Positions 3,462 through 63,284 are shown, numbered from the stretch's first letter. The stretch: DNA of 64,000 nt from Candidatus Saccharimonadota bacterium (GCA_003962975.1 RXKC01000003.1:50890-114889), one strand, 5' to 3'. A program made the numbers and translations. Notes: generated by a model from the sequence alone, not told the origin.

Positions 3462-3554
3462 GCATAAGCGTGTTAAATATTATACTTGCATTTATCGCAA
3501 GTTAGTGAGATATTTCATAGCATATATAACGGGTGGGAAAATAGGAGAACTGCT

Positions 3555-6500
3555 ATGGTGCGACTGGGAGCCCGTTCGTTCAAAACAAAAACACTACTTT
3601 CAAGAGTAAAAAACACCGCGATTGCTGGTGTGTTTGCCGTGGTACAGCTTACACCTGCCGTTGTGCTGCCTGCCAAAGCAGCTGCAGCTACAACAGCGCC
3701 AACCAACCCAACCCTTACACAGGCTTGTGGTTTGGATATTGCCCTCGTTATCGATAACTCAAACAGTATTGATAATGGCGAAATGACCCAGATCAAGAAT
3801 GCCATGACTGGCTTTACCAACGCGCTTAACGGCACCCCTACCCAGTTCTCCGTTACTCGCTTTGGGACATCTGCAACTGTTTTGCGTAACTTTACTGCCA
3901 ACGTAGGCAATGTAAACAGTTCAATCAATGGCATCTCAACCGGTGGTGGTGGTACAAACTGGGAAGATGGTCTTCTCAAAGCCAGCGGCACCTTTGACCC
4001 ACGTGCCGACAAGCCAAACCTAGTAATCTTTGCTTCCGACGGTAACCCAACTTACCGAAACGACGGCAACGGCGGCATTGACGGAAACGGTTCAAGCGAT
4101 CCACTTGGCTACAACCTAGATAATGCTGTAGTTCGTGCCAACGCTATTAAAAGTGCAGGCACCCGTATCCTCGCTCTTGGTATCGGTGACGACCTAGATG
4201 TCAACAACCTCAAAGCTATTTCTGGCCCTAACGCCAACACCGGCAATGTTTTGACCTCTGACGTTATCACATCTAACTTTGCAACTCTTGCAAGCGACCT
4301 AGCTGCATTTGCACAGCAAACCTGTGGTGGCACCATTACAACTCAGAAGCTTATCGATGCCGACGGCAATCCTAACACTACAGACGATCGCACTCCTGCA
4401 GCTGGATGGACCTTTGATATCAACGGTTCACCAAGCAACCCTGCTGCTGAAGCTACTGCTGGCGTAAATGGTCAAACTTCAGCTGTGAAAGTACAAGCTG
4501 GTACATACAGTGTCAACGAAACTCCACAAGCCGGTTACGACATCCTGTCAGCAAGCTGTACTGGTGCCAATGCCAATGGCTCGCGTCAAGGCAACAGCAT
4601 CGTAGGTATTACTGTTGCTGATAGCAACATCGTCTCTTGCGTATTCGTCAACGCACCAAGCAAAGGCAGCGTAAAAGTCGACAAGAAACTCGACCTTGAC
4701 GGCGACGGTACATACGAAAGCGGCAACAGCGAAGCTCAAGCACGTAACATTTTCTGGAACCTCGACGGTGGCAGTAACACAACTTTTGGCGGTACTATCA
4801 GCAACGTTGCTGTTGGTAGCCACACCGTAAACGAAACAAGCGTCGTTGGCTACCACTTCACTGGCTGGTACCCAACCATGAATACACAGCAGCAGTCATG
4901 CGCTAACCCAGCTGGCACTACACTACCAGTAAATATCACTGTAAATTCTGGTGTCGCTACAGCCATTACTCTCTGTAATCAGCGTGATACCGGTAACCTA
5001 AAAGTTGTTAAGAAAGTCATTAATAATAATGGTGGTACTGCAGATGCAGATGACTTCACCCTCTATGTTAAAAAAGGTAGCACCAACGTAAGTGATAGCC
5101 CTGCAGCCGGCTCAGCGAGCGGCAAAACCTACAAGCTTCCTACCGATACGTACACCGTCAGCGAAGACGCCAAGACTGGCTATGCGCAGACTTCACTGGT
5201 TTGTAAAGATGATGTTACCGGCAATACTGTTACTCACCCTGTAGTGTTGGCTCGTGACCAAAAAGTCACCTGTACAATCACGAATGACGACAAAGCCCCA
5301 ACAGTTACCGTTACGAAAAAAGTAGTTAACCCATATGGTGTCCCACTTTCACCAACTGCCTTCCCTCTATACATCGATGGCACACCTGTTGTCAGCGGCA
5401 CTCCCTACACACAGTTCAACGCTGGCTGGCGAACTATTAGCGAAGATCAGCAGACCGGTTATGAGTTTGGTGGTGTGAGCGGCGACTGTCAGTATGGCAA
5501 CGACGTTATAAGCATCTTGCTCAGCCTTGATGCTCACGCAACCTGCACCATTACCAACACAGCCATTCAGCCAAAACTAATTGTTAAAAAGAAAGTCATC
5601 AACGATAACAGTGGCACAAAATCTGCTAGCGACTTCACCATGGTTGTTAGCGGCAACAGTGCCGTAGTACCAAACTTCCCTGGTAGCAGCTTTGGTCAGA
5701 GCGTTGGCCTCAACGAAGGCAGCTACAATGTCACCGAACTTGGCGCCGAAGGCTACAACGCCAGCTTCAGCGCCGACTGTTCAGGCACAATCAGTGTTGG
5801 CCAAACCAAGACTTGTGTCATCACGAACAATGACAAAGCAAACCCAAGCATTCACGTTGAGAAGTTCGGCCCAGGCACTGCACACGAAGGTGACGAGATC
5901 GTATACGTGTTCAAGGTAACCAACACCGGTGATACCACACTTGATAATGTAAACATCAGTGACGACATCGCATCTAACGAAACCTGTGACGATACCTCCC
6001 TGAACATTGGACAAACAACGACCTGTACTGCCACGTACACCGTACCAAGCCCACAGATTGCACACGTCGTAAACACCGTAACCGCTGAAGGCACTGACCC
6101 AGACGACACCACTGTTACTGATACTGACGACCACATCATGGACGTACTACATCCATCTATTAACGTCGAAAAGACTGGTCCTAACAGCGCCAACGCTGGC
6201 GACACCGTTACGTACACCTTTACGGTTACCAACACCGGCGATGTACCACTCAGCATCTACAGCGTCGAAGACAGCATCACTGGTGACGGTGAGTACGTCA
6301 GTGGCGACACCAACCTTAACGATGTTCTAGACCTAGACGAAACATGGATCTTTACGGGCAAATACACCATCCCGGTCAAGCAAACTGCACCAGTAGTTAA
6401 CACTGTTACAGCTTGCGGCTACGAGCAGTATTACTACGATGAAGAAGATGACCGAGATGACGTCCTAGAGCGACTCGTGATTCAAGATGACTTGCCAATT

Positions 6501-6713
6501 GCTCTGCCACCAGCAAACGCTCGTGACTGTGCAAGCGATAGCCACACTCTGACCATTAACCAAGTCCTCGGTGCAAGCATTAGCACACCTACACTAGCCG
6601 TAACCGGACAAGCCGTTAGTCAGACAACACTGGTTGCGTTGTTCGTAACTAGCACCCTGCTTGTTGCAGCTGCACTACGTGGTCAGCGAAATACCAAAAC
6701 AGACGAAGCATAA
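3555..6713 (+). CDS. large cell-surface adhesin: signal peptide, vWA domain, tandem prealbumin/SpaA-like domains, two DUF11-type repeats, LAVTG sorting signal
   Basis: ATG at 3555 is preceded by GGAGA, and is preferred over the TTG at 3486. The vWA MIDAS motif is DIALVIDNSNSID. Three ~95-aa repeats follow the pattern L.V.KKV.N.NGG...DF.L.V...Y.V.E...GY....C...C.ITN.DK. DUF11-like repeats are VEKxGPxxAxxGDxVxYxFxVTNTGD. The C-terminus has LAVTG (nt 6594-6608), a hydrophobic helix and RGQRNTK. Confidence 0.8.
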   Translation: MVRLGARSFKTKTLLSRVKNTAIAGVFAVVQLTPAVVLPAKAAAATTAPTNPTLTQACGLDIALVIDNSNSIDNGEMTQIKNAMTGFTNALNGTPTQFSVTRFGTSATVLRNFTANVGNVNSSINGISTGGGGTNWEDGLLKASGTFDPRADKPNLVIFASDGNPTYRNDGNGGIDGNGSSDPLGYNLDNAVVRANAIKSAGTRILALGIGDDLDVNNLKAISGPNANTGNVLTSDVITSNFATLASDLAAFAQQTCGGTITTQKLIDADGNPNTTDDRTPAAGWTFDINGSPSNPAAEATAGVNGQTSAVKVQAGTYSVNETPQAGYDILSASCTGANANGSRQGNSIVGITVADSNIVSCVFVNAPSKGSVKVDKKLDLDGDGTYESGNSEAQARNIFWNLDGGSNTTFGGTISNVAVGSHTVNETSVVGYHFTGWYPTMNTQQQSCANPAGTTLPVNITVNSGVATAITLCNQRDTGNLKVVKKVINNNGGTADADDFTLYVKKGSTNVSDSPAAGSASGKTYKLPTDTYTVSEDAKTGYAQTSLVCKDDVTGNTVTHPVVLARDQKVTCTITNDDKAPTVTVTKKVVNPYGVPLSPTAFPLYIDGTPVVSGTPYTQFNAGWRTISEDQQTGYEFGGVSGDCQYGNDVISILLSLDAHATCTITNTAIQPKLIVKKKVINDNSGTKSASDFTMVVSGNSAVVPNFPGSSFGQSVGLNEGSYNVTELGAEGYNASFSADCSGTISVGQTKTCVITNNDKANPSIHVEKFGPGTAHEGDEIVYVFKVTNTGDTTLDNVNISDDIASNETCDDTSLNIGQTTTCTATYTVPSPQIAHVVNTVTAEGTDPDDTTVTDTDDHIMDVLHPSINVEKTGPNSANAGDTVTYTFTVTNTGDVPLSIYSVEDSITGDGEYVSGDTNLNDVLDLDETWIFTGKYTIPVKQTAPVVNTVTACGYEQYYYDEEDDRDDVLERLVIQDDLPIALPPANARDCASDSHTLTINQVLGASISTPTLAVTGQAVSQTTLVALFVTSTLLVAAALRGQRNTKTDEA

Positions 6714-11672: not shown

Positions 11673-13121
11673 TTACTCTATGGGGTCGGATGGTGGTCGG
11701 GTAGGAGTAATCATCGTGCCGGTGTCACCTTTTGCGTCGGCCTTCACGGTCTTATCTTCAGGGTTTTCCATAATTGTTTCGACTGCCACCTCTGGTTTTT
11801 TGCTGACAGTTTTCGTGGCAACAACCTTATCGGCACCAACTTTGCGTTCAATCTCGCTGAGAGTGTCGGTATCCTTAACGGCAGCCTTGTCTGGTGCTGT
11901 TTTGAGCTGAGTTTCGTGCAACGGCTTTGTCTCGGGAACAGACGGTGCTAGTGGCTGCACAGGTGCAGCATCTGGATCGGTGCCCACACCATTCACCACG
12001 ATACCACCAGTAACTTGGCGTCCTGAGCCTTTGCTTGGTCGGTGCTGGAGCCATCGTTTGCCAAGAACGATGAGTGCGATTGCAAGCGCAACTACAATTG
12101 CGATGCCTGCATACAGTGGCCAGTTAAATGGTTTCTTTAGAGTAAGTGCAAATTCCTGAGCAGTGACTGGTGAAGATGCGCTGGTATCAGTGACTGTTAT
12201 TTCTTTGGTAGCCGCACCAAGTACGCCTTTAGCTTCTAGCTTGTATTTGCCAGGTGCAATGCCGATAAAGCTGGCGACACCTTCATTGTCAGTAACAACG
12301 GTTTGCTTGTTGAGGGTTACGGATACGCCTGGGACTGGCTTGCCGTCAGGCCCCATGATAGTAATAGCGACAATGCCACCAAGTTGCGGTTGGGTAGCCG
12401 TCTCGTTTGGAGTAGTTACTTCTGTTGGAGAAGACGGGGTGGTAGGAGTTGTTGTGGGATTACTAGGCGTAGTCGGACGTGAAGTATTACCACCACCTCC
12501 GCCAGAGCGCGGCGTGGATGGCGTAGTAGGAGTTGTCGGAGTGCTAGGTGTTGTTGGAGGTTGTGGATTGTTTGTTGGTGGTTGTGGAGGCTGAGCCGGT
12601 GCAGCTAGAGTGTAGCTACCGCCACTCGTATTTCCGTTCCAGATATTAACACCTGTACCTGATTGAGAAATCTCGGAGTCAGACGTAAAGTTGAGAGCTG
12701 TCGAGCCCGTGGTTACTGCCTTGAAAACTGCCGTAGCAATCAATCGCTCATTAGTTACTGTGTTCGGTGGATTAATAAAACAGGTCACTCTGACAAGGCC
12801 ATTAGAGCCAGATGACTCTGGGCAGTTCGTGAATGAGCCGCCAGTATTGCTGACACTGACAAACTGAAACTTAGCAGTGTCATACGTTAAGCCAAATGTG
12901 ACAGCATTTACCGTAACGTTGCCGCTATTCTCGTAGATACCAACCGATATGTTTGTATCTTTGGTAACACTACCACTGGCTGGTTTTAACAAAAGGGTGG
13001 CATCACCGGTGGCAGCACGGGAGAATGTCAAGAGATACGTTCCAACAGCAGCGATCGCAACTACTACACCAATCCGTGCAATATTTTTTAGTACGTTACT
13101 TTTTTTGCCTGTTTTTTTCAT
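11673..13121 (-). CDS. membrane-anchored surface scaffold: cohesin-like module, Pro/Thr linker, Ig-like (carboxypeptidase-regulatory-like) domain, TM helix, cytoplasmic tail
   Basis: Signal/anchor IGVVVAIAAVGTYLLTFSRAATGD. A beta-rich ~130-aa module carries GLTYDTAKFQFVSV...ATAVFKAVTTGSTALNF, a cohesin-like pattern. The PT-rich linker includes PQPPTNNPQPPTTPSTPTTPTTPSTP. The Ig-like part reads GPDGKPVPGVSVTLN..TDNEGVASF..APGKYKL and the TM helix is LYAGIAIVVALAIALIVLG. Confidence 0.6.
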   Translation of the reverse strand: MKKTGKKSNVLKNIARIGVVVAIAAVGTYLLTFSRAATGDATLLLKPASGSVTKDTNISVGIYENSGNVTVNAVTFGLTYDTAKFQFVSVSNTGGSFTNCPESSGSNGLVRVTCFINPPNTVTNERLIATAVFKAVTTGSTALNFTSDSEISQSGTGVNIWNGNTSGGSYTLAAPAQPPQPPTNNPQPPTTPSTPTTPTTPSTPRSGGGGGNTSRPTTPSNPTTTPTTPSSPTEVTTPNETATQPQLGGIVAITIMGPDGKPVPGVSVTLNKQTVVTDNEGVASFIGIAPGKYKLEAKGVLGAATKEITVTDTSASSPVTAQEFALTLKKPFNWPLYAGIAIVVALAIALIVLGKRWLQHRPSKGSGRQVTGGIVVNGVGTDPDAAPVQPLAPSVPETKPLHETQLKTAPDKAAVKDTDTLSEIERKVGADKVVATKTVSKKPEVAVETIMENPEDKTVKADAKGDTGTMITPTRPPSDPIE

Positions 13122-14713
13122 TTCGCTGTCCAGTTATTTAACACTAGTAATAGATCGCTATAGTTTACGGAGCCTTTACCGTCTAGCTCGCCTTGCTCAC
13201 GAGTTCTGCCTGATTGACCCCAGTTGTTAAGCACGGCTAGAAGATCTTTATACTCAACGACTCCGTTGTTATCCACATCGCCTGCTTTTGGAGTTGGTGG
13301 TGGCGTAGTGACATTATCTGTAGTGACTGTGATGGAAGTTTGCTGACTGATATTTCCTGCCTTGTCCTGTACTCTGACCGATATCGTATGGCTGCCGTCA
13401 GCTACCTTAGTAGAATCCCATGCAAAGGTGTATGGAGCAGCCGTAACTGAACGCTGCAAGACACTGTTCACATAGAATTCTACCTGCTTCACTCCACTAC
13501 CCCCGACATTGTCGGCAGCATTGGCAGTAACATTAACGGTACCTTTTAGATTGGCCGCGTTGTTCGCAGGGCTGGTAATGCTAACAGTAGGCACGGTGAC
13601 GTCGGGGCTGCTAACCGCGATATCAATGCCGGTTGTATTATTTGATTCATTGCTTTCCACAACCTTATTGGTGCTGTCCACGGTGGCTTCTATGCGGTGA
13701 TTGCCGGCAATTGCTGTCCATGTAGCACCTGCGGTAATTTCAACTGTTGAGTTCGGGGCAATTGCAGGAGTATATGTAGCAGCTGTGATTGGCGACCCTC
13801 CAGCTGAAAAACTAATCACATTCTGCAGGCCAGCCACAGTTGCAGCTGCGCCTTGGTTGCGGATAGTGGCTTTTATAGTCACTCCATCACCAACCTTAGG
13901 TGAGGCAGGAGTTGTTGAGAGAGTAGCCACGATAAGATCTGGCTTGCCGTTTTGTACGATGACCTGGCGGGTTGTTGTCGCAGTGTTACCTGCGTCATCA
14001 GTTGCTCTAGCTGTGAGGGTGTGCGTGCCGTCAGTAGTAAGTAGCGTATTCCATTGAACAGAATATGGACTGGTTGTATCTGGTGTTGCCAGCGCAGTGC
14101 CGTTAAGCAAGAACTCTACTTGTTTAACGCGATTATTGTCGGTCGCTGTAGCAGAAACTGTTTGCGTTCCTGTCAGGACAGTTGGACTGGCAGCGGGCGC
14201 TGTCATGCTGACTGTAGGGTTTTGTACGTCAATCGGTTCAGCACAGTCATTGCCCAAGCCAGATGGCGTACAGGTTTCACCGCTAGTATTAATGCGGGTG
14301 AAGATTACTCTATCTACGAGGACTCCTTCACTCGTTCCCAGTAAGCGCATAGAAAATGGCGAACCGGCTGTCAGGTTAACATTGATCTTTGAACTGGCAG
14401 CCCCACCGTGAAAATCAACCCAAGTCCAGGTATTTGCGGGCAAGGAACCGGAGCCATTCACGGTATAGCAAGTACCGCCGTTAACTTCGATGAGAAAGTT
14501 ATTTTTTGCACTATCTGGTATTTGCATACGCGTCCAGACGCGGTATGTACCACTTTCTGGAACAGTAAGATTATTGAAACTAACCGTACCAAAGCTTGGG
14601 TTCGGATCGGCACAAGCTGCCTCTGCTCGTGATTCAACTAGTAAAAAACTAGCCGTCAACAGGGCGAAACCGACCAGCAAGGTAACCACACGGTTTTTGC
14701 TGATAAAACGCAT
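13118..14713 (-). CDS. secreted multi-domain protein with C-terminal dockerin (two EF-hand-like repeats), Ig-like repeats and a CARDB-like domain
   Basis: Start is preferred at MRFISKNRVV (14713). The dockerin duplicate is GDVDNNGVVEYKDLLAVLNNWG / GELDGKGSVNYSDLLLVLNNW. The CARDB-like stretch is KPDLIVATLSTTPASPKVGDGVTIKATIRNQG. Two Ig-like repeats follow the pattern P(T/V)VS(M/I)T(A/S)P...VxVxAxAxDNxxVxxVEFxxN. The stop TGA overlaps the ATG of the next gene (ATGA). Confidence 0.65.
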   Translation of the reverse strand: MRFISKNRVVTLLVGFALLTASFLLVESRAEAACADPNPSFGTVSFNNLTVPESGTYRVWTRMQIPDSAKNNFLIEVNGGTCYTVNGSGSLPANTWTWVDFHGGAASSKINVNLTAGSPFSMRLLGTSEGVLVDRVIFTRINTSGETCTPSGLGNDCAEPIDVQNPTVSMTAPAASPTVLTGTQTVSATATDNNRVKQVEFLLNGTALATPDTTSPYSVQWNTLLTTDGTHTLTARATDDAGNTATTTRQVIVQNGKPDLIVATLSTTPASPKVGDGVTIKATIRNQGAAATVAGLQNVISFSAGGSPITAATYTPAIAPNSTVEITAGATWTAIAGNHRIEATVDSTNKVVESNESNNTTGIDIAVSSPDVTVPTVSITSPANNAANLKGTVNVTANAADNVGGSGVKQVEFYVNSVLQRSVTAAPYTFAWDSTKVADGSHTISVRVQDKAGNISQQTSITVTTDNVTTPPPTPKAGDVDNNGVVEYKDLLAVLNNWGQSGRTREQGELDGKGSVNYSDLLLVLNNWTAK

Positions 14714-14825
14714 ACAATCATAGTACACGCATATGCTTAGTCTCTGCAATATCAGATGTATCTACCTGGTCACATCTGGCGGATAGGCTAAAAATCTGTA
14801 CAATAGATATACATAAGCATGGTGA

Positions 14826-29961: not shown

Positions 29962-30579
29962 CTAAAGAACAGTTTGCCAGTAGTACCAGAATCGATTCAG
30001 GATAAGTCCGATGATAATTACATACCACAGTACCAAAATGTCACCGTGGTGCCGCTGCATAAACTCTGAAACTGACTGAAAACGTTTGGGCACTTTTATA
30101 TGTCCCATGCGCAAATTGTATAGAGTCGTATATAAAAATATCGGAATCATGATTGTCCAGACCACCATGCACCAGGGACATAAAGCGCCAATGTCATACA
30201 GTGCTGAATACATCAGCCAATGCACAAAGGCGATACCAAAGATCGTTCCGGCTTGCAGTCCTAACCAGAACCACCGCTTAAACGTAGCTCCTGCCAAGAG
30301 CGCCATACCAATAGTTGTGACCACACCAAAACCAAAGATACCGATGAGTGGGTTCATAAACCCAAAGGCTTCAGCCTGCGGTGAACGTATGATCGAGCCA
30401 CAACTGATAACGGGGTTTATGTTGCAGTTAGGAACGTAAGACGGATCTTTCAGGATATGAATCTTTTCAAGCGTCAGTATAAATGCAGCCAGTAAGCCGA
30501 TGATTCCTAAGATTGCCAAAATATAGCCAATTGTTTTTTGAAGAGTAAGTGGTTTCTTTGTAGGTGCTTTTGTTGCCAT
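29962..30579 (-). CDS. vitamin K epoxide reductase (VKOR) family membrane protein
   Basis: Start is preferred at MATKAPTKKP (30579). Loop Cys pair NCNINPVISC, active-site CPWC in a TM helix, and 4-5 TM segments. The 114-codon N-terminal extension in the ORF track crosses a structured non-coding region. Confidence 0.8.
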   Translation of the reverse strand: MATKAPTKKPLTLQKTIGYILAILGIIGLLAAFILTLEKIHILKDPSYVPNCNINPVISCGSIIRSPQAEAFGFMNPLIGIFGFGVVTTIGMALLAGATFKRWFWLGLQAGTIFGIAFVHWLMYSALYDIGALCPWCMVVWTIMIPIFLYTTLYNLRMGHIKVPKRFQSVSEFMQRHHGDILVLWYVIIIGLILNRFWYYWQTVL

Positions 30580-30610
30580 ACCTACATAATACACTGTCCT
30601 ACCGCGACTT

Positions 30611-30740
30611 GGCTTGGTGCTATTCCTGTTATGGCAAATCCGCACGAGCGGCGAAACCGAACGGGTTTCGGGCCGCGAGCTCAGGACTCTGTAGCCAGAA
30701 CAGGAATAGCCCAAGGCAACTACGCACAGTGCGGATTTGC
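30611..30740. ncRNA. candidate structured RNA / leader with two long interleaved helices (family unknown, strand undetermined)
   Basis: Helix A pairs 30613-30630 with 30699-30715 (17 bp, one bulge). Helix B pairs 30634-30645 with 30729-30740 (12 bp, perfect). An internal GC-rich hairpin spans 30648-30676. The order A-B-A'-B' implies a pseudoknot or mutually exclusive folds. Confidence 0.35.
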
Positions 30741-30798
30741 AAAAATCATACAATCCCAAGTCTAGCGCTGCATCTTGGTTTCTTTGTACAATAGAGGC

Positions 30799-31356
30799 AT
30801 GAAGCCGCTTTATCTTGCCAGCATTCCAAAAAGCAAACGCCCTCTTTTTGTACCAGACTTTGCTGCTGAAAGTATTTTGGATGTCGACTTTGCAGCCATC
30901 AGAAAACTGGGTGTCAAACATTTACTGATCGACCTTGACTTAACCCTACGTAAAAAAATGACTAGAAAGCTAGAGCCAGCGATTATTGAATACTTGACGA
31001 TCACCATGAAAAAGCACGGCTTTAGTTCTCTTAATATTGCCAGCAACAACATGCTCGATCTATCTGGCTATGGTAATTCTATTAAGGCCAAAGTTTTTCA
31101 GCCATTTTGGAAGCGACTAGTATTAATTCGCAAACCACACCGCTTATTCTTTGATCGCATTACGAAAACGCTAGGCGCTGATCCTAAAGAGTGCGTCATG
31201 ATCGGCGACAAACTTCGCGGCGATGTGTTTGGCGGCAACCAAGCTGGCATGTATACCGTCCATGTCAAACCCAAGGGTCAAGATTACTGGTACGACTTGA
31301 TCCTGTTTACGCGCTACCGCGAAAGACGATCTTTGAGCCGACATCATAAGAAATAA
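30799..31356 (+). CDS. YqeG-family HAD-IIIA phosphatase
   Basis: ATG at 30799 follows AGAGG. Motifs: HLLIDLDLTL (motif I), KP, and MIGDKLRGDVFGGNQAGMYTV (motif IV). Confidence 0.75.
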   Translation: MKPLYLASIPKSKRPLFVPDFAAESILDVDFAAIRKLGVKHLLIDLDLTLRKKMTRKLEPAIIEYLTITMKKHGFSSLNIASNNMLDLSGYGNSIKAKVFQPFWKRLVLIRKPHRLFFDRITKTLGADPKECVMIGDKLRGDVFGGNQAGMYTVHVKPKGQDYWYDLILFTRYRERRSLSRHHKK

Positions 31357-38377: not shown

Positions 38378-38454
38378 GCCGGTGTAGCTCAGTTGGTTAG
38401 AGCACAGGACTCATAAGCCTGGGGTCAGTGGTTCAAATCCACTCATCGGCACCA
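38378..38454 (+). tRNA. tRNA with CAU anticodon, elongator-Met-like (Ile2/lysidine identity not excluded), CCA encoded
   Basis: The cloverleaf folds by hand: acceptor GCCGGUG/CAUCGGC, D arm GCUC-AGUUGGUUA-GAGC, anticodon loop CUCAUAA, T arm AGUGG-UUCAAAU-CCACU. It closely resembles E. coli metT. The 31:39 pair is an A-G mismatch. Confidence 0.9.
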
Positions 38455-44958: not shown

Positions 44959-45033
44959 CGCGGGGTAGAGCAGTGGCAGCTCGTGTGGCTCATAACCACA
45001 AGGTCGCAGGTTCGAGTCCTGCCCCCGCTACCA
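44959..45033 (+). tRNA. initiator-type tRNA-fMet (CAU), CCA encoded
   Basis: CGCGGGG...CCCCGCU-ACCA with an unpaired 1:72 (C-U). It is near-identical to E. coli tRNA-fMet in the acceptor, D and T arms. The anticodon stem carries two, not three, consecutive G-C pairs next to the loop. Confidence 0.9.
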
Positions 45034-53135: not shown

Positions 53136-54686
53136 ATGCCCAGAGCAAAGTCGACCCCGATCCATAAGTCTGCTGTTCTTGCCGCCGCTCTGTTGGTCGC
53201 CATTGGCGGCCTGATCTACGAACTGCTGCTCGGTACCGCCTCTTCATATTTGTTTGGTGATTCTATTACCAGTTTTAGCCTCAGTATTGGCACTATGCTG
53301 TTTGGTATGGGCGTTGGCTCTCTGTTATCTTCGCGGTTACTTAGCAAAGCTCCCCGTAATTTTGTATTGACCGAACTACTGCTCAGTCTGATCGGCGGCA
53401 ATGCAGTTATTCTGATGTTTAGCGCCTTTGTGTATACCAAGCTGTATTGGCTGGTCTTTGTACTGCTGAGTACCGGTATTGGTATACTGATTGGTTTTGA
53501 AATACCCCTCATGGTGCGCATTGCCAAACAAGCTCAACAGAAAGACGTTGAAAAGTTATTATCACGAGTCCTTGCCTTGGATTACCTGGGAGCCTTAGTC
53601 GCCTCCCTACTGTTCCCCTTTTTGCTCTTGCCCTATCTCGGCTTAGTGCGCACCAGCTACATCATGGGTCTGCTCAATGCAGTGATCGCACTGTTTATCT
53701 TGGCCAAGGTACAGACTGGACAGCGCAAGCCATGGATCGTAGCACTTAACCTGGTAATCATTATCTTTTTTGCTGTAAGTTTTGTATTTTCACACCGTAT
53801 CGAACGCGCCATTGGCACTGCTCAGTACGGTGACCCAGTGGTGGCCTATAAACTGACCCCCTACCAAAAAATCGCAGTCACTGCCTATGGTCAAGATGTC
53901 CGCCTGTTTTTAAATGACCAGCTGCAGTTTAGTTCTATCGACGAGGCTCGCTACCACGAGACGTTGACCCATTCCGCTTTGACATCGGTAAAGCAGCCTC
54001 GCAACGTGCTTATTTTGGGCGGGGGTGACGGGCTGATTGCCCGTGAAGTCCTAAAATATGACAGCGTACAGCGTATTACACTTGTTGATATCGATCCCGC
54101 TATGACAACTATGGCCCGGACGAATCGCTTGCTAAGCGACGTTAACCACGGATCATTAGATGACGCGCGTGTGAAAGTCATTAATCAAGATGCCTTCTCG
54201 TATACCAGGAACTCGCGCGAATCATACGATGCCATTATCGTTGACCTGGTCGACCCATCTAATGAGCGCGTTGCCAAGCTATACTCACAAGAATTCTACC
54301 GAGCTGCACACGCCCGACTAACACCAAATGGCGCATTCATTACCCAAGCTTCTTCGACGTACTTTACGCCCAATGCTTTTCAGACAATCCGACAAACTAT
54401 TGCCAGCACCGCTGAGGCACGTAAGATCTCGCCGCTCAACATCAATGTGCCCTCTTTTGGTGAATGGGGCTTTGTTCTCAGTACGCCAGCCTCGACGCAG
54501 CTATTTCGTGAAAACCAGCTACCAAAGAATCTCTCTTATGTAAGCACTCAGACGCTTGCCCAGGCAGCCGGCACACCGCGCGACTTTCAACCTACCGTTT
54601 CTGCCGATACGGTATCAACCTTAATTTACCCGAAGCTGTATCATATCTACCAAAAAGATATGCGCCAGTGGCGCTACGGCAATTAA
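53136..54686 (+). CDS. speE: polyamine aminopropyltransferase (spermidine synthase) fused to an N-terminal ~7-TM domain
   Basis: VLILGGGDGLIAREVLKY, ITLVDIDPAMT, DAIIVDLVDP and ITQASS. Confidence 0.85.
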   Translation: MPRAKSTPIHKSAVLAAALLVAIGGLIYELLLGTASSYLFGDSITSFSLSIGTMLFGMGVGSLLSSRLLSKAPRNFVLTELLLSLIGGNAVILMFSAFVYTKLYWLVFVLLSTGIGILIGFEIPLMVRIAKQAQQKDVEKLLSRVLALDYLGALVASLLFPFLLLPYLGLVRTSYIMGLLNAVIALFILAKVQTGQRKPWIVALNLVIIIFFAVSFVFSHRIERAIGTAQYGDPVVAYKLTPYQKIAVTAYGQDVRLFLNDQLQFSSIDEARYHETLTHSALTSVKQPRNVLILGGGDGLIAREVLKYDSVQRITLVDIDPAMTTMARTNRLLSDVNHGSLDDARVKVINQDAFSYTRNSRESYDAIIVDLVDPSNERVAKLYSQEFYRAAHARLTPNGAFITQASSTYFTPNAFQTIRQTIASTAEARKISPLNINVPSFGEWGFVLSTPASTQLFRENQLPKNLSYVSTQTLAQAAGTPRDFQPTVSADTVSTLIYPKLYHIYQKDMRQWRYGN

Positions 54687-56834: not shown

Positions 56835-58289
56835 TTGAAGCGTACCCTCAGCAAACTAGATGCCTACCAAGCGATTGCGTTTATAACCGGCTTTGGCCTC
56901 CTAACCTATGAATTAATAGCTTCACGCCTATTAGCTCCAACCATTGGAAGCTCAATTTATGTTTGGACAAGTGTTATTGGAGTAATCATTGCAGCCCTGT
57001 CTCTTGGCTATACCATTGGCGGATCACTGGCAGACAAACGCACCGACCCACTGGACATTAGCTGGTTGCTCATCATGTCTTCTGCAGGCGTGCTGACAAC
57101 GCTGATTCTGTCGCCTGTCATACTGAGCGCCGTTACGGTATTATTCGCTGATCCGAGATTGCAAGGTTTGTTCGCTTCGTTATTATTGTTTGCGCCAACT
57201 AGTTTTGTATTGGGCATGATCAGCCCATACCTGGCAAAGCTAAAAAATGTGTCGCTCAAGACAACTGGTTCAACCATTGCTTCGCTGAGCGCGCTCAATG
57301 CTATGGGCAGTATAACTGGCACTTTTTTGACCGGCTTTATATTTATGGCCTACATTGGATCTAGTGAAACACTCATCCTTGTGTGTCTTACGCTACTGGC
57401 AAGTAGCTGGCTAATTCTGCCTCGCAGCTTACAGCAGCCACGACTAGCCGCTTCTGCCATTGTGATATTAATTGCTGTTTTAGCTCAGGTAGGCGCGATT
57501 ACATCCACGAGTGCGATCACTATAGACACACCTACTTCCAGCTATGAACTGATTGATGCTACTATTGCCGGTCGTGATGTTCGTGTTCTTTCTTCTGGTC
57601 CAGGAGCCTACCAGTCCGGCATTTTTTTAGATAAAGATCCGTCACTGGTTTTTGCGTATACAAAAACACTCGCTAAAGTTGTAGACGAAGCTCCAAAAAA
57701 GGAGCGCATTCTGGTGCTGGGCGGCGGAGCCTACACCCTGCCACAACACCTGGCACGCGCTTATCCGAAAGCCCGGATAGACGTGGTCGAAATCGATGCC
57801 AAACTTGCTTCGGTTGCTCGTAAGCATTTTGATTACAATCCGCCAGCAAACATAACTGACTACCATCTGGATGCACGCGCATTTCTTAACCAAACAGATA
57901 ATACCTACGACGTTGTCCTGGTTGATGTGTTTAGCGACACACAGATTCCATTTTCAGTCACCACAGCTCAGTATGGTCAGCAACTGCGACGTATCCTGAA
58001 CCCAGAAGGCACAGTCGTCACAAACTTTATTGGCACAAACAATGGTGCCTGCAGCCAACTGCTCGGCTCAATCTACAAGACGTACCGTCAGAACTTTGCA
58101 ACCGGTAAAATACTCCCGCTTGGTGACGAGGCAATGACTAACAGTCAAAATATCATTATGGCATTTAGTCAGACCGAACTTGCTTGGTTAAAGAATGGTT
58201 GGAGAGACTACGAACCATCAAGCGCAAGCTTAGTGCTACGTGATAATTTTGCACCAGTCGAACAGTTGCAGGCTCGTTGCCCAGCGTAA
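56835..58289 (+). CDS. fused membrane / spermidine-synthase-like protein (degenerate paralog, TTG start)
   Basis: ~7 N-terminal TM helices, then ILVLGGGAYTLPQHLARAY, IDVVEIDAKL and DVVLVDVFSD. The Asp of the GGGDG motif is replaced. Confidence 0.7.
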   Translation: MKRTLSKLDAYQAIAFITGFGLLTYELIASRLLAPTIGSSIYVWTSVIGVIIAALSLGYTIGGSLADKRTDPLDISWLLIMSSAGVLTTLILSPVILSAVTVLFADPRLQGLFASLLLFAPTSFVLGMISPYLAKLKNVSLKTTGSTIASLSALNAMGSITGTFLTGFIFMAYIGSSETLILVCLTLLASSWLILPRSLQQPRLAASAIVILIAVLAQVGAITSTSAITIDTPTSSYELIDATIAGRDVRVLSSGPGAYQSGIFLDKDPSLVFAYTKTLAKVVDEAPKKERILVLGGGAYTLPQHLARAYPKARIDVVEIDAKLASVARKHFDYNPPANITDYHLDARAFLNQTDNTYDVVLVDVFSDTQIPFSVTTAQYGQQLRRILNPEGTVVTNFIGTNNGACSQLLGSIYKTYRQNFATGKILPLGDEAMTNSQNIIMAFSQTELAWLKNGWRDYEPSSASLVLRDNFAPVEQLQARCPA

Positions 58290-59453
58290 CTATTTCTTGA
58301 TTGTGCCTTGCCAGAAGACATGGGCGTTGTAGACAGCGTTACCGGCACTTGTGCGCCAGGCGCCAAAGCCATAGAAGTTGTAGGCTGGGTCAAGTATGTT
58401 GTTTCTGTGACCAGGACTATTCCAGTAAGCATCCATGACGATACGAGCAGCGTTTTCAGTAGCTGGTCTGTCGGCACCGACAGGAATACCAACCACACCG
58501 ACGTTCTCACCAATTTTCATCCAAGTGTTACCGCAGAACTGTACTGGCAGGTGAGCAATAGGACTGCTGTGCTGTAGCACATTGCGAGCAGCTAGTTGTC
58601 GCGCCCACTCACGAGCCGCGATGTCTAGACAAGTTATTCTGGTCATGGCTGCACGACCGGCTCCCACCCGCATTTCGATAAAGCGAATTGCGAGAGCGTT
58701 TTCGTGATCAACATCCATTGCATAGTAATTTACCGCTGGTACAGGGGTTGGCGCTGGCGCACCCGGTGCAGGTGCAGAGCCACCGGCATGAGCTGTTGGC
58801 ACAACTGCATTTGCTAGTCGGTTTGCCAAGCTTGGATTGTTCTTTCGTTCCATCGAAGTCTTGGCATGGGGAACAATCAGATCCCACTGCGGTAGGTCAG
58901 AATCTTGTATAGCTTCGCCTGTCACGCCACATAGTCCCTCTAGATAGGCAACTGTCTCGAGGAAGAGAGGACTTTCTTGGTCAGGTGTGTAGATGTCTGA
59001 ATTCTCTTCGAGGCCCATGTCTCGAATAAAGATACCACGGTAATCGTTGACCAGAGCTGTTTGGTTATTGGCATCTGTCCCCGCAGGTAATTTCTCGCTC
59101 TTGGCTCGGTCTATAAGACTAATAACGCCTTGGCGCTCGGTGTCAGAGAGTTTTCGCAGAGTGACTGAACCTTTGTCTTCAGGCGTACAGTACAAATTGG
59201 CTGTCTTTGAAACATCAATGGTACGCGGCCGGGAGGTATACTCTCTGATGCCATTTTCATCTTGAGTGATAGAAACTGGCTTTTCATTCACATAACTCAT
59301 GGCAATGTTGCCCTTTGCTACGAACTCGGCACGGTAGTCAGTAGCAGCATTAGCATAGACTATGATCGAACCAATACCGATAACAGCGAGCATAACTGCC
59401 CAGAAGGATTTTTTTGTATAACGTGGTGTTTGTTTTTGAATGCGCGACGGCAT
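58290..59453 (-). CDS. secreted CAP/SCP (PR-1-like, YkwD-type) domain protein
   Basis: Leader MPSRIQKQTPRYTKKSFWAVMLAVIGIGSIIVYANA. The C-terminal domain reads AAREWARQLAARNVLQHS...ENVG...MDAYWNSPGHRNNIL...FGFGAW. Confidence 0.7.
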   Translation of the reverse strand: MPSRIQKQTPRYTKKSFWAVMLAVIGIGSIIVYANAATDYRAEFVAKGNIAMSYVNEKPVSITQDENGIREYTSRPRTIDVSKTANLYCTPEDKGSVTLRKLSDTERQGVISLIDRAKSEKLPAGTDANNQTALVNDYRGIFIRDMGLEENSDIYTPDQESPLFLETVAYLEGLCGVTGEAIQDSDLPQWDLIVPHAKTSMERKNNPSLANRLANAVVPTAHAGGSAPAPGAPAPTPVPAVNYYAMDVDHENALAIRFIEMRVGAGRAAMTRITCLDIAAREWARQLAARNVLQHSSPIAHLPVQFCGNTWMKIGENVGVVGIPVGADRPATENAARIVMDAYWNSPGHRNNILDPAYNFYGFGAWRTSAGNAVYNAHVFWQGTIKK

Positions 59454-59583: not shown

Positions 59584-59703
59584 TTATGACTGCTGATCAG
59601 TCATTTTAATCGGTCCACGGCGGCTGGCCTGACCTCCCTTGCGCGCAATTTCCCTCTGCTTTTCCTTGCTCATTGCTGCGAAACCACGTTTTGCTTGTGC
59701 CAT
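59584..59703 (-). CDS. KGG-repeat small stress protein (39 aa)
   Basis: MAQAKRGFAAMSKEKQREIARKGGQASRRGPIKMTDQQS. An AGGAGG RBS lies 7 nt upstream. The RGFA..M....REIA.KGG pattern marks the KGG / general-stress family. Confidence 0.6.
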   Translation of the reverse strand: MAQAKRGFAAMSKEKQREIARKGGQASRRGPIKMTDQQS

Positions 59704-59840
59704 AATTGCTCCTCCTTATTACTTTTACCTTACCAGCATAACCATACAGATAACCATGTGCAGTAAACTTTCTTACTTCAAATACTCAGGAATTTACAAG
59801 GCTTAGCTTGCTATACTGGAGTGGTATTAAGGGGAAATGC

Positions 59841-60338
59841 ATGCAACCACAACCAAAAAAGAATACTGCACTTATCGGCCTCATTGCCATTGTCGTACTG
59901 GCCGCACTTGTCGTGGGCACCATAGCACTACAGCCAAAGAAGGACTCGTCACAAAACAGTGACACAAACACCAGCACGAACACCCCATCATCAGACACAG
60001 AAACATCAAATCCTTCCTCAACTACTGAGCAGGAAAGCGGTGAGTATAAAGACGGTACATACAAAGCCACCGGCAGCTACGTATCGCCCGGCGGCAACGA
60101 AGAGATAGATGTCACCATAACAATTGCTGACGGTAAGATCACCGATAGTTCGGTTGCACCACAAGCTGCAACTCGTGAATCATTAGAATACCAAGACGAA
60201 TTTGTGAATGGTTATAAAGAACAAGTAACCGGTAAAGATCTAGCAACTTTGATGCTTGGTAAAGTGTCAGGATCATCCCTGACGTCGAGAGGATTTAATG
60301 AAGCACTCGACCAAATTCGCAGCCAAGCCAAAATCTAA
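59841..60338 (+). CDS. membrane-anchored FMN-binding-domain protein (predicted ApbE substrate)
   Basis: TM anchor LIGLIAIVVLAALVVGTIAL, YKDGTYKATGSYVSPGGNEEIDVTITIADGKITD, and the flavinylation-type motif VSGSSLTS (compare D..SGAT). Confidence 0.65.
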   Translation: MQPQPKKNTALIGLIAIVVLAALVVGTIALQPKKDSSQNSDTNTSTNTPSSDTETSNPSSTTEQESGEYKDGTYKATGSYVSPGGNEEIDVTITIADGKITDSSVAPQAATRESLEYQDEFVNGYKEQVTGKDLATLMLGKVSGSSLTSRGFNEALDQIRSQAKI

Positions 60339-61209
60339 TATTCAGCTCGACTTCGAGGCCATTGGCACCATGTGGGCCGTACAGCTCGCTGCACCAGCAG
60401 AACATGCACAGCGAATTAGCAAACTGATCGCTGACCGCATTAGTCTTTTTGATCGCACTTATTCCCGCTTTCGTCCTGATTCGTGGGTACAGCAATGTAG
60501 TCAGCCAAGTCGATACAGAACCCCTGCCGACTTTGCACCACTTTTTGAGCTATACCAACAACTAAATGAACTTACGGATGGCGCCGTGACGCCGCTGATT
60601 GGCGACGTACTAGAAAGGGCAGGGTACGACCAAAATTACAGCCTCGAACCAAAAGCGCTGCAGCAAATTCCGTCCATGCCAGAAGCACTTGAACTCATTG
60701 ATAATACTTTACATGTTAAGTATAAAGTATGTTTAGACTTTGGCGCTGCTGGCAAAGGATACTTAGTTGATATCATCGCCGCGCTACTCATTAAGGAGGA
60801 TATTACCGAATTTTATATAGACGCCGGTGGAGATATCTACCATAACTTCCCTACTCCCACCCCTGTTGGCCTCGAGGACCCAGCCGACAGCACTAAAGTT
60901 GTTGGTATTGCTAAATTGCAGGCCGCCAGCCTGTGCGGATCTGCCGGCAACCGACGGCAATGGGCCGGACTACACCACATTTTTGACCCCCGCAGCCTGC
61001 AACCAACCGATACTATTGAGGCTGTTTGGGTACTTATACCTCATAGTTCAGACATAACTTATCCAACTATGCTGGCCGACGGGCTGTCGACTGCCCTATT
61101 CTTTAGCAAGCCATCCTTACTAGAAAACAGCTTCGCGTTTGAATATGTCATACTGTCTACAGACAAAAGTGCGTATACCTCAAAACACTTTCCAGGAGGA
61201 TTAGCATGA
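60298..61209 (+). CDS. apbE: FAD:protein FMN transferase ApbE
   Basis: FEAIGTMWAVQL, FGAAGKGYLVD, IDAGGDI and HHIFDPRS. Confidence 0.85.
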   Translation: MKHSTKFAAKPKSNIQLDFEAIGTMWAVQLAAPAEHAQRISKLIADRISLFDRTYSRFRPDSWVQQCSQPSRYRTPADFAPLFELYQQLNELTDGAVTPLIGDVLERAGYDQNYSLEPKALQQIPSMPEALELIDNTLHVKYKVCLDFGAAGKGYLVDIIAALLIKEDITEFYIDAGGDIYHNFPTPTPVGLEDPADSTKVVGIAKLQAASLCGSAGNRRQWAGLHHIFDPRSLQPTDTIEAVWVLIPHSSDITYPTMLADGLSTALFFSKPSLLENSFAFEYVILSTDKSAYTSKHFPGGLA

Positions 61210-62720
61210 AGCAAATCGACCAACTACTAAACCGCATCACCATGTACAAACTGTTGCTATGGGGTTTGCGTGGCTTGTTCGTAATTTCCTGGATATTCAG
61301 TATCGCCGGAGTTTTGCCATATGGTGCAGTGCGTCCCCTTGTAGGTGTCAGTATTTTGCTAGGCATCAGTTTTGCTGCTAACTATATATTTGCCGGGCTA
61401 TACCGGGTTGCTGCCAACAGCGAATCTACCAACATTACTGCCCTGCTTTTGTACTTTATTTTTCAGCCACCCAAAGACGTACGCGAAGCGATTATTCTTG
61501 GTTTAGCTGCCCTTTTAGCTATAGCCTCAAAGTACCTGATCACCAAACACGAGCGACACATATTTAACCCAGCCGCCTTTGCAGCCGTGGTGATTGGTTT
61601 AAGCGGTCTACTGACTTCACGCTGGTGGATTGGCCGTGATACCATGTTTATCTTTGTAATTATCCTGGCTCTTTTAATTGTCAGAAAAATTCACCGTTTT
61701 CCTATGGTCATGGTATTTGGTGCCAGTGCCACAATACTGTTGCTGGTACGCAATGCCGGTGATGCAGCTGCGGCAACACTGCTGCGTGATGCTGTTTTGT
61801 CCTTCCCAATCTTCTTTTTGGGTGGCACCATGCTAACCGAACCTGTCACTACACCACCTCGCCGATACCAGCAAGTTATGTATGGATTATTGGTCGGTCT
61901 GTTATTTAGCTCTGGCCTACATCTTGGTGACCGATTTATGACGCCAGAACTTGCACTGGTTATTGGTAACCTAGCCGTCTGGATAATTGCGACTCGTGGC
62001 AGGCAACCATTAAAGCTTGTTGGCATTGAGACTATTGGTAAGACAATTTTTGAGTACCGATTCAAACCAGTCCGACCACTTGCCTTCAAGCCCGGGCAAT
62101 ATTTAGAGCTGACCCTGCCACTACAAAAAACCGACTTTCGCGGTAATCGCCGAACCTTTACCATTGCCTCGTCGCCGACTGAAGACGAGATACTGTTTGG
62201 CATTAAGCAAGTTGAACCCAGCAGTGCTTTTAAATCAGCATTGGCCAAGCTTGAGTCTGGTCATGAAGTAACCGGCAACAACCTTGCAGGTGATTTTCTT
62301 CTGCCCGATGATCCAAAACAAAAGCTAGTATTTATCGCCGGTGGCATCGGCGTGACACCATTCCGCAGCATGCTAAAGTTTTTGACCGACAACCGCCAAA
62401 CAAGAAACATTGTGCTGTTTTATTGCGTCACAGACCCCAAGCAAATTGTTTACAAAGATATCCTTAATGATGCAAAAGAGTATGGCTTAAAAGTAGTATA
62501 TGTTCTCAACCCTGCTCCCGGCCAAGAAGCACCAGCTAGTTGGAAGGGTGAATTAGGCTTTCTGACGAAAGACCTTATCGCTAAGCATGCGCTCGATTAC
62601 GAGCAACGCACCTTCTATATATCTGGCCCCGATGTCATGGTGCAAGCCAATAAAAAGCTACTGCGCAGTATGGGTATCCAGCGCACAAATATTCGCACTG
62701 ACTATTTCTCGGGCTACTAA
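61206..62720 (+). CDS. polytopic membrane domain fused to FNR-type FAD/NAD(P)H oxidoreductase domain
   Basis: The N-terminal ~250 aa carry ~8 TM helices and GGTMLTEPVTTPP, reminiscent of the NqrB/RnfD TDPxT(S/T)P motif. The C-terminus has FKPGQYLELTLP, RRTFTIASSP and FIAGGIGVTPF. Confidence 0.75.
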   Translation: MKQIDQLLNRITMYKLLLWGLRGLFVISWIFSIAGVLPYGAVRPLVGVSILLGISFAANYIFAGLYRVAANSESTNITALLLYFIFQPPKDVREAIILGLAALLAIASKYLITKHERHIFNPAAFAAVVIGLSGLLTSRWWIGRDTMFIFVIILALLIVRKIHRFPMVMVFGASATILLLVRNAGDAAAATLLRDAVLSFPIFFLGGTMLTEPVTTPPRRYQQVMYGLLVGLLFSSGLHLGDRFMTPELALVIGNLAVWIIATRGRQPLKLVGIETIGKTIFEYRFKPVRPLAFKPGQYLELTLPLQKTDFRGNRRTFTIASSPTEDEILFGIKQVEPSSAFKSALAKLESGHEVTGNNLAGDFLLPDDPKQKLVFIAGGIGVTPFRSMLKFLTDNRQTRNIVLFYCVTDPKQIVYKDILNDAKEYGLKVVYVLNPAPGQEAPASWKGELGFLTKDLIAKHALDYEQRTFYISGPDVMVQANKKLLRSMGIQRTNIRTDYFSGY

Positions 62721-62729
62721 TGCCTGGAC

Positions 62730-63284
62730 TTAAGTAGTTCCTCTGAGCGCAGCAACCGCTCTAACCCAACGACTAGTATGTTGCTGCATCCGCTCTTCGG
62801 CTTCGTATATCAGTTGCATACGAGACCGCGTTCTAGCGGGGTGATCCAACACTGAACAGACTAAACCTATCTGATCTGGATGAGTTACCACAAGTCGCCC
62901 ACCATTCAAGGCTGCGGCAATATAGGCCAGACCACCTTCATCTAGTCTAGGATTTTCAAGCGTTGGATTCCTCAGACTAATAACAGCAACCTGTATCGCT
63001 GAATTTCCTAACTCAGCAAGAACAGCAGGATCATCTCGAAGACGAGGTAATACAAATCGCCCCAGCTCGGCACGGCGCTCAAGCGCAGAAGCATCTGCCC
63101 AGGGTGAGTCCGGGCCTACGCCCAAGTACTGGGCCTCAATGTCAGTAACAGTCAGACCCGCCCCACTCAGCGTGTCTGCACTACCACCGAACGAAAGTAC
63201 TTCATGCCCACGTTGGGCAATTTCACTCACTAGCTCAGGTAGACCTTCTTTGATCGAACTGCTCACCAGCACATTTTGTGTCAT
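62730..63284 (-). CDS. stand-alone MGS-like / PurH-N-terminal-like domain protein
   Basis: VLVSSSIKEGLPELVSEIAQRGHEVLSFGGSADTLSGAGLTVTDIEAQ resembles PurH ALLSVSDKTGIVEFAQAL..RGVELLSTGGTA..L...GL.VTEVSD. AVISLRNPTL aligns to VVVNLYPF. Confidence 0.45.
   Translation of the reverse strand: MTQNVLVSSSIKEGLPELVSEIAQRGHEVLSFGGSADTLSGAGLTVTDIEAQYLGVGPDSPWADASALERRAELGRFVLPRLRDDPAVLAELGNSAIQVAVISLRNPTLENPRLDEGGLAYIAAALNGGRLVVTHPDQIGLVCSVLDHPARTRSRMQLIYEAEERMQQHTSRWVRAVAALRGTT

Follow-up and report, generated by a model that had tools for sequence, protein, structure and literature searches.

The NQR/RNF-like flavinylation-associated system was defined by Méheust et al. 2021, eLife (PMC8238504), by a protein that joins an N-terminal PF03116 domain (E<=1e-3) and a C-terminal PF00175 domain, with ApbE and/or FMN_bind encoded within five genes. 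It has been described mainly from Actinobacteria and the candidate phyla radiation (PMC8238504, PMC11334425), and an electron path from NAD(P)H to the outside of the cell was independently proposed in both papers. In the AlphaFold-multimer model of the Ktedonobacter racemifer complex presented by Huang et al. 2024, mSystems (PMC11334425), the membrane subunit is described without a flavinylation site, and the site of its partner docks near the non-covalent flavin pocket of the membrane subunit. Here we analyse a module of three genes, A, B, and C, located in a stretch of DNA of 64,000 nucleotides (nt) (RXKC01000003.1:50890-114889), which we call the window and to which all coordinates refer; the module lies on the + strand. 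Judged by its sequence and its predicted structure, the module is a member of this published system and not a new one. The original prediction held that this particular fusion of a membrane domain with a dehydrogenase domain deserved a look. The fusion is real, but its architecture had already been published as NQR/RNF-like (PMC8238504, PMC11334425).

The locus shares with the published system the fusion of an NqrB/RnfD-like membrane domain and a C-terminal PF00175 domain in one protein, as well as the neighbours, an FMN_bind (NqrC/RnfG-like) gene and apbE, which here are immediately upstream and overlap. Also shared are the taxa (candidate phyla radiation, Actinobacteria, and Ktedonobacteria, the last used for the published model), the loss of the flavinylated Thr of the membrane subunit, the presence of two structural subunits without other Nqr/Rnf subunits in the cluster, and the proposed one-way path from NAD(P)H to the outside. 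The differences are minor: the PF03116 match of C has an E of 1.3e-3, just outside the published cut-off, and the motif of the partner is GKVSGSS versus DxxSGAT. In the passages concerned, neither paper comments on an export signal of ApbE or on the conservation of the riboflavin site.

Gene A (59841..60338, +) encodes a membrane-anchored FMN_bind (NqrC/RnfG-like) protein of 165 amino acids (aa), gene B (60298..61209, +) an ApbE-family FAD:protein FMN transferase of 303 aa without N-terminal export signal, and gene C (61206..62720, +) a 504-aa fusion of an NqrB/RnfD-like membrane domain and a domain of the ferredoxin-NADP-reductase (FNR) type. The map of open reading frames (ORFs) placed them head to tail, exactly where three consecutive overlapping genes had been predicted (59841-62720), with overlaps of 41 nt between A and B and of 4 nt (ATGA) between B and C. 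The longest ORF of A opens at TTG 59808; the start was nevertheless assigned to ATG 59841, because a Shine-Dalgarno-like AAGGGGA (59829..59835, +), read from the sequence, is found 5-6 nt before it and because gene callers on identical metagenomic contigs give 165 aa. The identical 504-aa protein C was found on 18 public contigs, where its neighbours are also the same. ORFs of such length and with thousands of homologues are not explained by chance. That A, B, and C form one operon is probable, at the moderate confidence that we attach to the whole of the explanation proposed below. Promoter and terminator scans gave nothing better than shuffled sequence.

The membrane domain of C covers aa 1-266 (61206..62003, +). 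When the whole 504-aa protein was compared with the PDB, either as sequence or as model, the FNR half swamped the results, and this was solved by excising aa 1-266. PF03116 was matched in 30 of 40 full-length homologues of C (best E 1.1e-12), and a profile of the membrane domain only (A2) matched RnfD (8ahx_D) with an E of 1.3e-4. Aligned by hhalign with the single RsxD sequence, the A2 profile covered only the C-terminal half (probability 75%), while a small RnfD/NqrB profile built from E. coli RsxD and PDB alignments, used in global mode, aligned the whole domain (aa 1-266) with a probability of 98.2% and an E of 2e-13. The AlphaFold2 models had a pLDDT of 88.5 and a pTM of 0.81 for the full protein and of 89.4 and 0.87 for aa 1-266. 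In the Foldseek search of the PDB with the latter, the top 15 matches were all RnfD/NqrB (probability 1.00, TM-score 0.60-0.77); urea and ammonium transporters came far behind in the list, and there were no ferric-reductase domains among the matches of the membrane domain. Four independent tests (the PF03116 match of the family, the A2 profile, hhalign, and AlphaFold2/Foldseek) thus settle, at the level of sequence and model, that the membrane half of C has the NqrB/RnfD fold, a relation that had been suspected from the TEPVTTPP motif. About eight transmembrane helices had been predicted for this half; the AlphaFold2 model shows 10.

For the topology of C, the helices of the model were taken as membrane segments and the charges were counted over the 40 homologues. 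Lysine and arginine residues added up to 12.8 in the loops that share a side with the N-terminus and the FNR junction versus 3.0 in the alternate loops. Because of this difference, C is placed with both termini inside (N-in/C-in), with the FNR domain in the cytoplasm, as the original prediction required, and with the vestigial FMN loop outside as in NqrB/RnfD.

By homology to what has been described for NqrB, the residues that would hold a flavin in the membrane domain were located. The mapping was chained, from the family to RsxD and then from RsxD to the Vibrio cholerae NqrB numbering. The riboflavin ligands of NqrB reported by Hau et al. 2023 (PMC10643135) are T162, G198 (backbone), N200, N203, A205, F342 (backbone), and D346, and the mutant of D346 lost most of the voltage generation (PMC10643135). 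In C, the stretch NSESTNIT (aa 71-78; 61416..61439, +) contains E73, equivalent to NqrB E157, and T78, equivalent to the ligand T162; S74 and T78 were invariant in the C family and E73 was at least 90% conserved. The stretch HIFNPAA (aa 118-124; 61557..61577, +) aligns with N200-F-L-N203-P204-A205 of NqrB, part of the riboflavin site, so that N200 corresponds to H118, N203 to N121, and A205 to A123; N121 and P122 were invariant, while H118, A123, and A124 reached at least 90%. Finally, TEPVTTPP (aa 211-218; 61836..61859, +) aligns with TDPV[TS] of RnfD/NqrB, and since E212 maps onto D346 it can be read as the T[DE]PVT motif of the riboflavin site; T211, E212, P213, and P217 were invariant among the 40 homologues. 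The riboflavin-site residues T78, N121, A123, and E212 are accordingly conserved in C, the flavin site itself being a predicted one.

The covalent site of NqrB/RnfD has had a different fate. In the hhalign alignment, RsxD residues ~141-225, including D-G-I-S-Q-A-T187 (NqrB T236), face a gap in C, and the short outer loop RWWIG (aa 139-143; 61620..61634, +), whose W140 and W141 were invariant in the 40 homologues, is found in place of the ~80-aa periplasmic loop with the flavinylated Thr. A motif scan of the whole protein found the [ST]G[AS][ST] pattern nowhere in C. From these alignments, the covalent-FMN loop of NqrB/RnfD is deleted in C. Compared with NqrB/RnfD (PF03116), C thus shares the fold, the xxNPA and T[DE]PVT motifs, the riboflavin ligands, and the N-in/C-in layout of 10 helices, but lacks the covalent FMN site and the ~80-aa periplasmic loop, is ~84 residues shorter than NqrB at the N-terminus, and carries an NAD(P)H dehydrogenase domain of its own. 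Apart from the NqrC/RnfG-like A, it also lacks in the window region and in L001-L004 the partners NqrA,C-F or RnfA-C,E,G of bona fide complexes; no NqrA/D/E/F or RnfA/B/C/E partners were found within ±10 kb in that region. Electron flow is semicircular in Nqr/Rnf, whereas in C it is predicted to be outward only.

The C-terminal half of C (aa 267-504; 62004..62717, +) was assigned to the FNR-type flavin/NAD(P)H domains by PF00175, NCBIfam, PDB, and Foldseek matches, in agreement with the FAD/NAD(P)H domain proposed originally from its two motifs. The PF00175 score was 60.5 bits, the NCBIfam matches were Fre, Hmp, and NqrF, the PDB sequence matches were 1qfj (Fre) and NqrF, and Foldseek gave target-normalised TM-scores of 0.7-0.84 to the FAD/NAD modules of Fre, NqrF, and Hmp. 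The stretch RRTFTIASSP (aa 315-324; 62148..62177, +) corresponds to the flavin-binding motif R-x-[YF]-[ST]-x-x-S and aligns with RPFSMAS of Fre, with R315, R316, F318, and S323 invariant and T319 and S322 at least 90% conserved in the 40 homologues. Inside the PF00175 match, GGIGVTPF (aa 379-386; 62340..62363, +) corresponds to the NAD(P)H-binding motif G-G-x-G-x-x-P, and its G379, G380, G382, T384, and P385 were invariant in the same set. PF08030 (ferric-reductase NAD-binding) matched 34 of these homologues; PF00970 was found in just 10 of the 40 and not in the window protein. Short FNR-only proteins of ~210-310 aa, matching only aa ~230-504 of C, are common in Saccharibacteria and related genomes (L033-L040, L043, L045, L054, L056), and could represent the dehydrogenase domain in a split or an independent form.

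Protein A matched PF04205 FMN_bind with 24 bits (cutoff 22), and a profile made from 19 proteins of type A encoded in related loci matched the FMN-binding domain of PDB 8p2a with an E of 7e-17. Its N-terminal signal-anchor helix (aa 10-30; 59868..59930, +) is preceded by KK and reaches 2.93 in a Kyte-Doolittle window of 19 residues, and after a linker rich in Ser, Thr, and Asn comes the folded FMN_bind domain (aa 69-165; 60045..60335, +), delimited by the A-type alignment and the 8p2a profile match. All homologues of A have a short basic N-terminus followed by one hydrophobic helix, and lipoboxes (VAGC, GAGC, LASC) were found in the actinobacterial orthologues from Arthrobacter, Nocardioides, and Amnibacterium. 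The KK and the hydrophobic N-terminal segment of 21 residues, together with these lipoboxes, indicate that the FMN_bind domain of A lies outside the cytoplasm. An N-terminally anchored FMN_bind protein with its domain outside had been anticipated, and the VSGSSLTS motif noted at that time is present at aa 142-149. The flavinylation-like motif GKVSGSS (aa 140-146; 60258..60278, +) aligned with DAVSGAT of 8p2a, which makes Ser146 the predicted FMN acceptor. The proteins of type A fall into two subtypes: those of Saccharibacteria and Actinobacteria, to which the window protein belongs, have the motif [KR]-[VI]-[SAG]-[GS]-[SA]-[ST], and the other cluster partners have the canonical D-I-[IV]-[ST]-G-A-T. 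The acceptor position was Ser or Thr in 19/19 aligned partners. A second apparent FMN_bind match 5.6 kb downstream, beyond the window (L001 17093-17536), was discarded as spurious; it has no Pfam match and no SGAT-like motif, and rests on a membrane anchor and a low-complexity linker only.

Protein B was recognised as a flavin transferase ApbE, as had been claimed, by a PF02424 score of 117.5 bits and by its alignment with the solved ApbEs 1vrm, 4xgw, and 2o18 across the AGKGY, DAGGD, HHIFDP, and ADGLSTA stretches.

The module is not restricted to the window. Thousands of homologues of C were found, and the close ones with a name belong mostly to Candidatus Saccharimonadales/Saccharibacteria; the window probably comes from a Saccharibacterium. 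Scanning species-representative genomes gave full-length relatives of C in Saccharibacteria, in several other lineages of Patescibacteria, and in a few proteobacterial or unclassified metagenome-assembled genomes, and also in Ktedonospora formicarum, Arthrobacter globiformis, Nocardioides sp., Micrococcales, and Amnibacterium. The search with the membrane-domain profile returned 625 cluster representatives (50% identity) at E<=1e-30, and most of the best 150 of these 625 had the length of the fusion (480-515 aa). The order A, ApbE, C was kept in 17 of the ~22 loci with enough upstream sequence, which come from Saccharibacteria, other Patescibacteria, Ktedonospora, Arthrobacter, Nocardioides, and Amnibacterium. 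No conserved neighbour family was found beside the module in the related loci, including a terminal reductase or transporter; the recurring neighbours were components of ABC transporters in 7 loci and two-component regulators in 3-4. The module therefore looks self-contained, with an acceptor that is not encoded adjacent to it.

The three genes were also compared between actinobacterial loci (L029, L030, L032) and those of other Patescibacteria (L007, L011, L026). The A and ApbE of the window are much closer to the actinobacterial versions, with E of 8e-23 and 1e-57, respectively, to Arthrobacter versus ~1e-4 to 1e-5 for other Patescibacteria. C, by contrast, is just slightly closer to other Patescibacteria than to Actinobacteria, and a crude neighbor-joining tree put Saccharibacteria beside Actinobacteria. 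These sequence comparisons give hints of a gene exchange between the epibionts and their actinobacterial hosts.

Considering the domain identities, the membrane sides, the conserved flavin-site residues, the lost covalent-FMN loop, and the synteny of the genes, we infer the electron steps of a mechanism of the NQR/RNF-like kind, and we hold it probable, with moderate confidence, that the module is a two-subunit transmembrane electron conduit made of flavins only, accompanied by its maturation enzyme. The flavin of the FNR-like domain of C, in the cytoplasm, would oxidise NAD(P)H and hand the electrons to a second, non-covalent flavin, which in the membrane domain would occupy the position of the NqrB riboflavin (T78, N121, A123, E212). 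From there they would reach an FMN bound covalently to Ser146 of the externally anchored A, which would dock on the outer face of C, where NqrB/RnfD bear their own covalent FMN. The reduced external FMN could then deliver the electrons to an extracellular acceptor, for instance Fe(III), free flavins or quinones, O2, or something on a host cell. The transfer of FMN from FAD to A is assumed to be the task of ApbE (B). The net result would be a one-way export of reducing equivalents with regeneration of NAD(P)+.

Two other groups of electron-transfer systems resemble this arrangement in part. NADPH oxidases (NOX), ferric reductases, and MsrQ-like NAD-binding fusions (SpNOX 8qq7) have the same logic of an N-terminal membrane redox domain and a C-terminal FNR-type dehydrogenase that sends NAD(P)H electrons outward, with flavins standing in for the haems in the proposed path of C, and the dehydrogenase domain of NOX and ferric reductases is structurally similar to that of C; their membrane domain is unrelated, however, being a six-helix di-haem domain there and an RnfD fold with predicted flavin(s) in C, and C is proposed to need in addition a separate flavinylated partner. 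With the flavin-based extracellular electron transfer of Listeria (Ndh2, EetA/B, PplA, FmnB) the module shares a final carrier that is extracellular, membrane-tethered, and of the ApbE-flavinylated FMN_bind type, the flavinylation of A being predicted; A matches the NCBIfam PplA model weakly (32.6 bits, cutoff 325). The Listeria system crosses the membrane through the quinone pool and EetA/B, whereas an NqrB-like flavin wire is proposed here. FmnB of Listeria is an exported lipoprotein, for which a dedicated transporter delivers FAD to the outside (PMC9973259), in contrast to the window ApbE, which has no export signal.

Several points weigh against the conduit as we propose it. In the literature searched we found no experimental study of any NQR/RNF-like member. 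The window C itself scored just 18.6 bits with PF03116 (E 1.3e-3), below the cutoff of 27.7. The motif of A deviates at two positions (Asp to Gly and Ala to Ser) from the canonical D-x-x-[ST]-G-A-[ST] (PMC12052999), although the S, the G, and the acceptor S are retained; in published mutagenesis of the motif the change of D to A had minor effects and that of A to V left ~50% flavinylation (PMC12052999), which suggests, by analogy, that the Asp may be dispensable for flavinylation. Another difficulty concerns the site of action of ApbE. Neither the ApbE encoded here nor that of any of the ~20 related clusters, the ones with the canonical-motif subtype of A included, had a signal peptide, a transmembrane helix, or a lipobox. 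An ApbE that appears to lack an export signal would not meet on the same side of the membrane an exported A, its presumed substrate, and the options left for this topological mismatch are flavinylation before Sec export, another role for ApbE, or a non-classical export. An N-terminal lipoprotein or secretion signal is typical, not universal, for ApbEs with extracytosolic targets. In the passages of PMC8238504 and PMC11334425 concerned, the mismatch is not discussed. Two ways around it were also considered: a programmed frameshift that would produce an A-ApbE fusion and so export ApbE was ruled out by an in-frame stop between the end of A and the ApbE frame in L010, L017, L024, and L029, and Tat export of a pre-flavinylated A is unlikely, since no twin-arginine motif was present in any of the A orthologues examined.

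It may then be asked whether ApbE acts in the cytoplasm and A is not flavinylated outside at all, so that the enzyme either modifies A before Sec export or serves C, loading or processing its flavin from the cytoplasm, for example as an Ftp-like FAD pyrophosphatase, while A binds FMN non-covalently or gets it elsewhere. The ORFs of the ApbEs from loci with the order A, B, C begin only ~5-25 residues before the catalytic domain, and in the window protein the first 22 residues are hydrophilic, the ORF is not extendable upstream, and the alignment begins at residue 17, opposite residue 18 of the E. coli construct that was crystallised without its signal. A cytoplasmic enzyme would reach FAD directly, the motif of A is degenerate in the Saccharibacteria/Actinobacteria subtype, and cytosolic ApbEs are documented, serving cytosolic targets (PMC12052999). 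The motifs of a catalytic-type ApbE are kept, however, a Ser or Thr occupies the acceptor position in every aligned partner, and the other subtype of A is fully canonical though its ApbE is also signal-less; we consider this explanation unlikely on balance. To our knowledge, there is no precedent for the Sec export of a pre-flavinylated protein.

The conserved riboflavin site admits a further interpretation, since in NqrB its ligands feed ubiquinone: C could act as an NAD(P)H:quinone oxidoreductase, like an Nqr reduced to its minimum and without the circular flow. The FNR flavin would then reduce the riboflavin-site flavin and this a membrane quinone, with A on a side branch or serving as another point of entry or exit. 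The VKOR-family protein of the window (29962..30921) would fit with it, as VKOR normally requires a membrane quinone. However, C is ~84 residues shorter than NqrB (T78 = T162) and is without the region in which NqrB has the amphipathic helices (L26, A29, L33) that cover its ubiquinone (PMC10643135), a quinone reductase would leave unexplained why C is linked so tightly and so widely to ApbE and an exported FMN_bind protein, and quinone biosynthesis genes were not seen among the window genes scanned. We find this interpretation distinctly improbable. It is still harder to argue that C retained the ion translocation of NqrB/RnfD, with outward electron flow coupled to Na+ or H+ in a minimal redox-driven pump, which we regard as highly improbable. 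NqrB holds the Na+ path and sites in Nqr (PMC10643135), E73 aligns with NqrB E157 at the cytoplasmic entry, and E212 takes the place of D346, the mutation of which reduces the voltage generated (PMC10643135). But D346 is primarily a riboflavin ligand, the Glu position of the periplasmic exit (G-E-x-S motif) is not conserved in the C family (consensus WWVGSxxM), the conformational switch driven by NqrC depends on NqrD/E, absent here, and most Na+ ligands are backbone carbonyls, on which sequence cannot inform. The evidence for ion pumping by the NqrB-like scaffold is thin. A composite of these ideas, in which an all-flavin wire without haem or Fe-S would receive an A flavinylated in the cytoplasm by the signal-less ApbE and then exported, and might also move Na+/H+, is in our opinion very unlikely. 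We retain the two-subunit outward conduit as the preferred reading.

The genes within ~±10 kb of the module encode a CAP protein, a KGG protein, MFS/spermidine synthases, a DEAD helicase, a zinc alcohol dehydrogenase, DivIC, and proteins without assigned family. Divergent from A and upstream of it are a CAP/YkwD-domain protein of 387 aa with an N-terminal transmembrane helix (58290-59453, -) and a KGG-repeat stress protein of 39 aa assigned to PF10685 by annotation (~59584-59703, -). Two paralogous genes of fused MFS/spermidine synthases (53136-54686, + and 56835-58289, +; NF037959 with 233.9 bits for the second) and a nearby S-adenosylmethionine decarboxylase gene (L001 484-819) make up a polyamine cluster just upstream of the module. 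On the other side, a convergent gene (62730-63284, -) encodes a protein of 184 aa that has no Pfam family and whose N-terminus is weakly similar to the MGS-like domain of PurH (NCBIfam 25.6 bits, cutoff 402).

The other window genes that were scanned encode housekeeping and surface proteins, with no respiratory complex and no quinone synthesis genes among them. The VKOR-family protein mentioned above has 319 aa (29962-30921, -) and matched PF07884 with 150.6 bits. VKOR is a quinone-dependent disulfide oxidoreductase, and since neither a respiratory chain nor quinone synthesis was seen in the part of the window that was scanned, its presence raises the question of the source of the quinone. Two large surface proteins are possible host-attachment factors of an epibiont: one of 1075 aa (3486-6713, +), pilus- or adhesin-like, with VWA, SpaA-type prealbumin folds, and DUF7507, and one of 543 aa (13118-14749, -) with Big_7 and CARDB domains. 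At 1938-3461 (+), a Cro/C1-type helix-turn-helix is fused to a full-length domain of the EPSP-synthase fold (PF00275), an unusual architecture. The sole Rfam matches in the window were two tRNA genes (38378-38451 and 44959-45030, +).

The idea of electron export by these systems was already in the literature, and the locus is another instance of it and not a discovery. What is added, besides the non-canonical motif of A, are details useful for experiments: the ApbE of the cluster never has an export signal, and C keeps the residues of the NqrB riboflavin site but has lost the loop of the covalent FMN. Arthrobacter, Nocardioides, and Ktedonospora are cultivable, carry the three-gene module, and could serve as test organisms. 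The main text of the Cell 2023 paper on Patescibacteria genetics does not mention ApbE, flavin, or FMN. If, as in the very unlikely composite reading, the wire on the ion-conducting NqrB/RnfD scaffold also moved Na+ or H+, it would be a minimal two-subunit redox-driven pump for Patescibacteria devoid of a respiratory chain. The module could also serve iron acquisition or redox exchange with the host cell.

For Patescibacteria (candidate phyla radiation), which are generally without electron transport chains, a self-contained module that would export NAD(P)H electrons to the cell surface is a plausible answer to the question of how these organisms keep NAD(P)H in balance.

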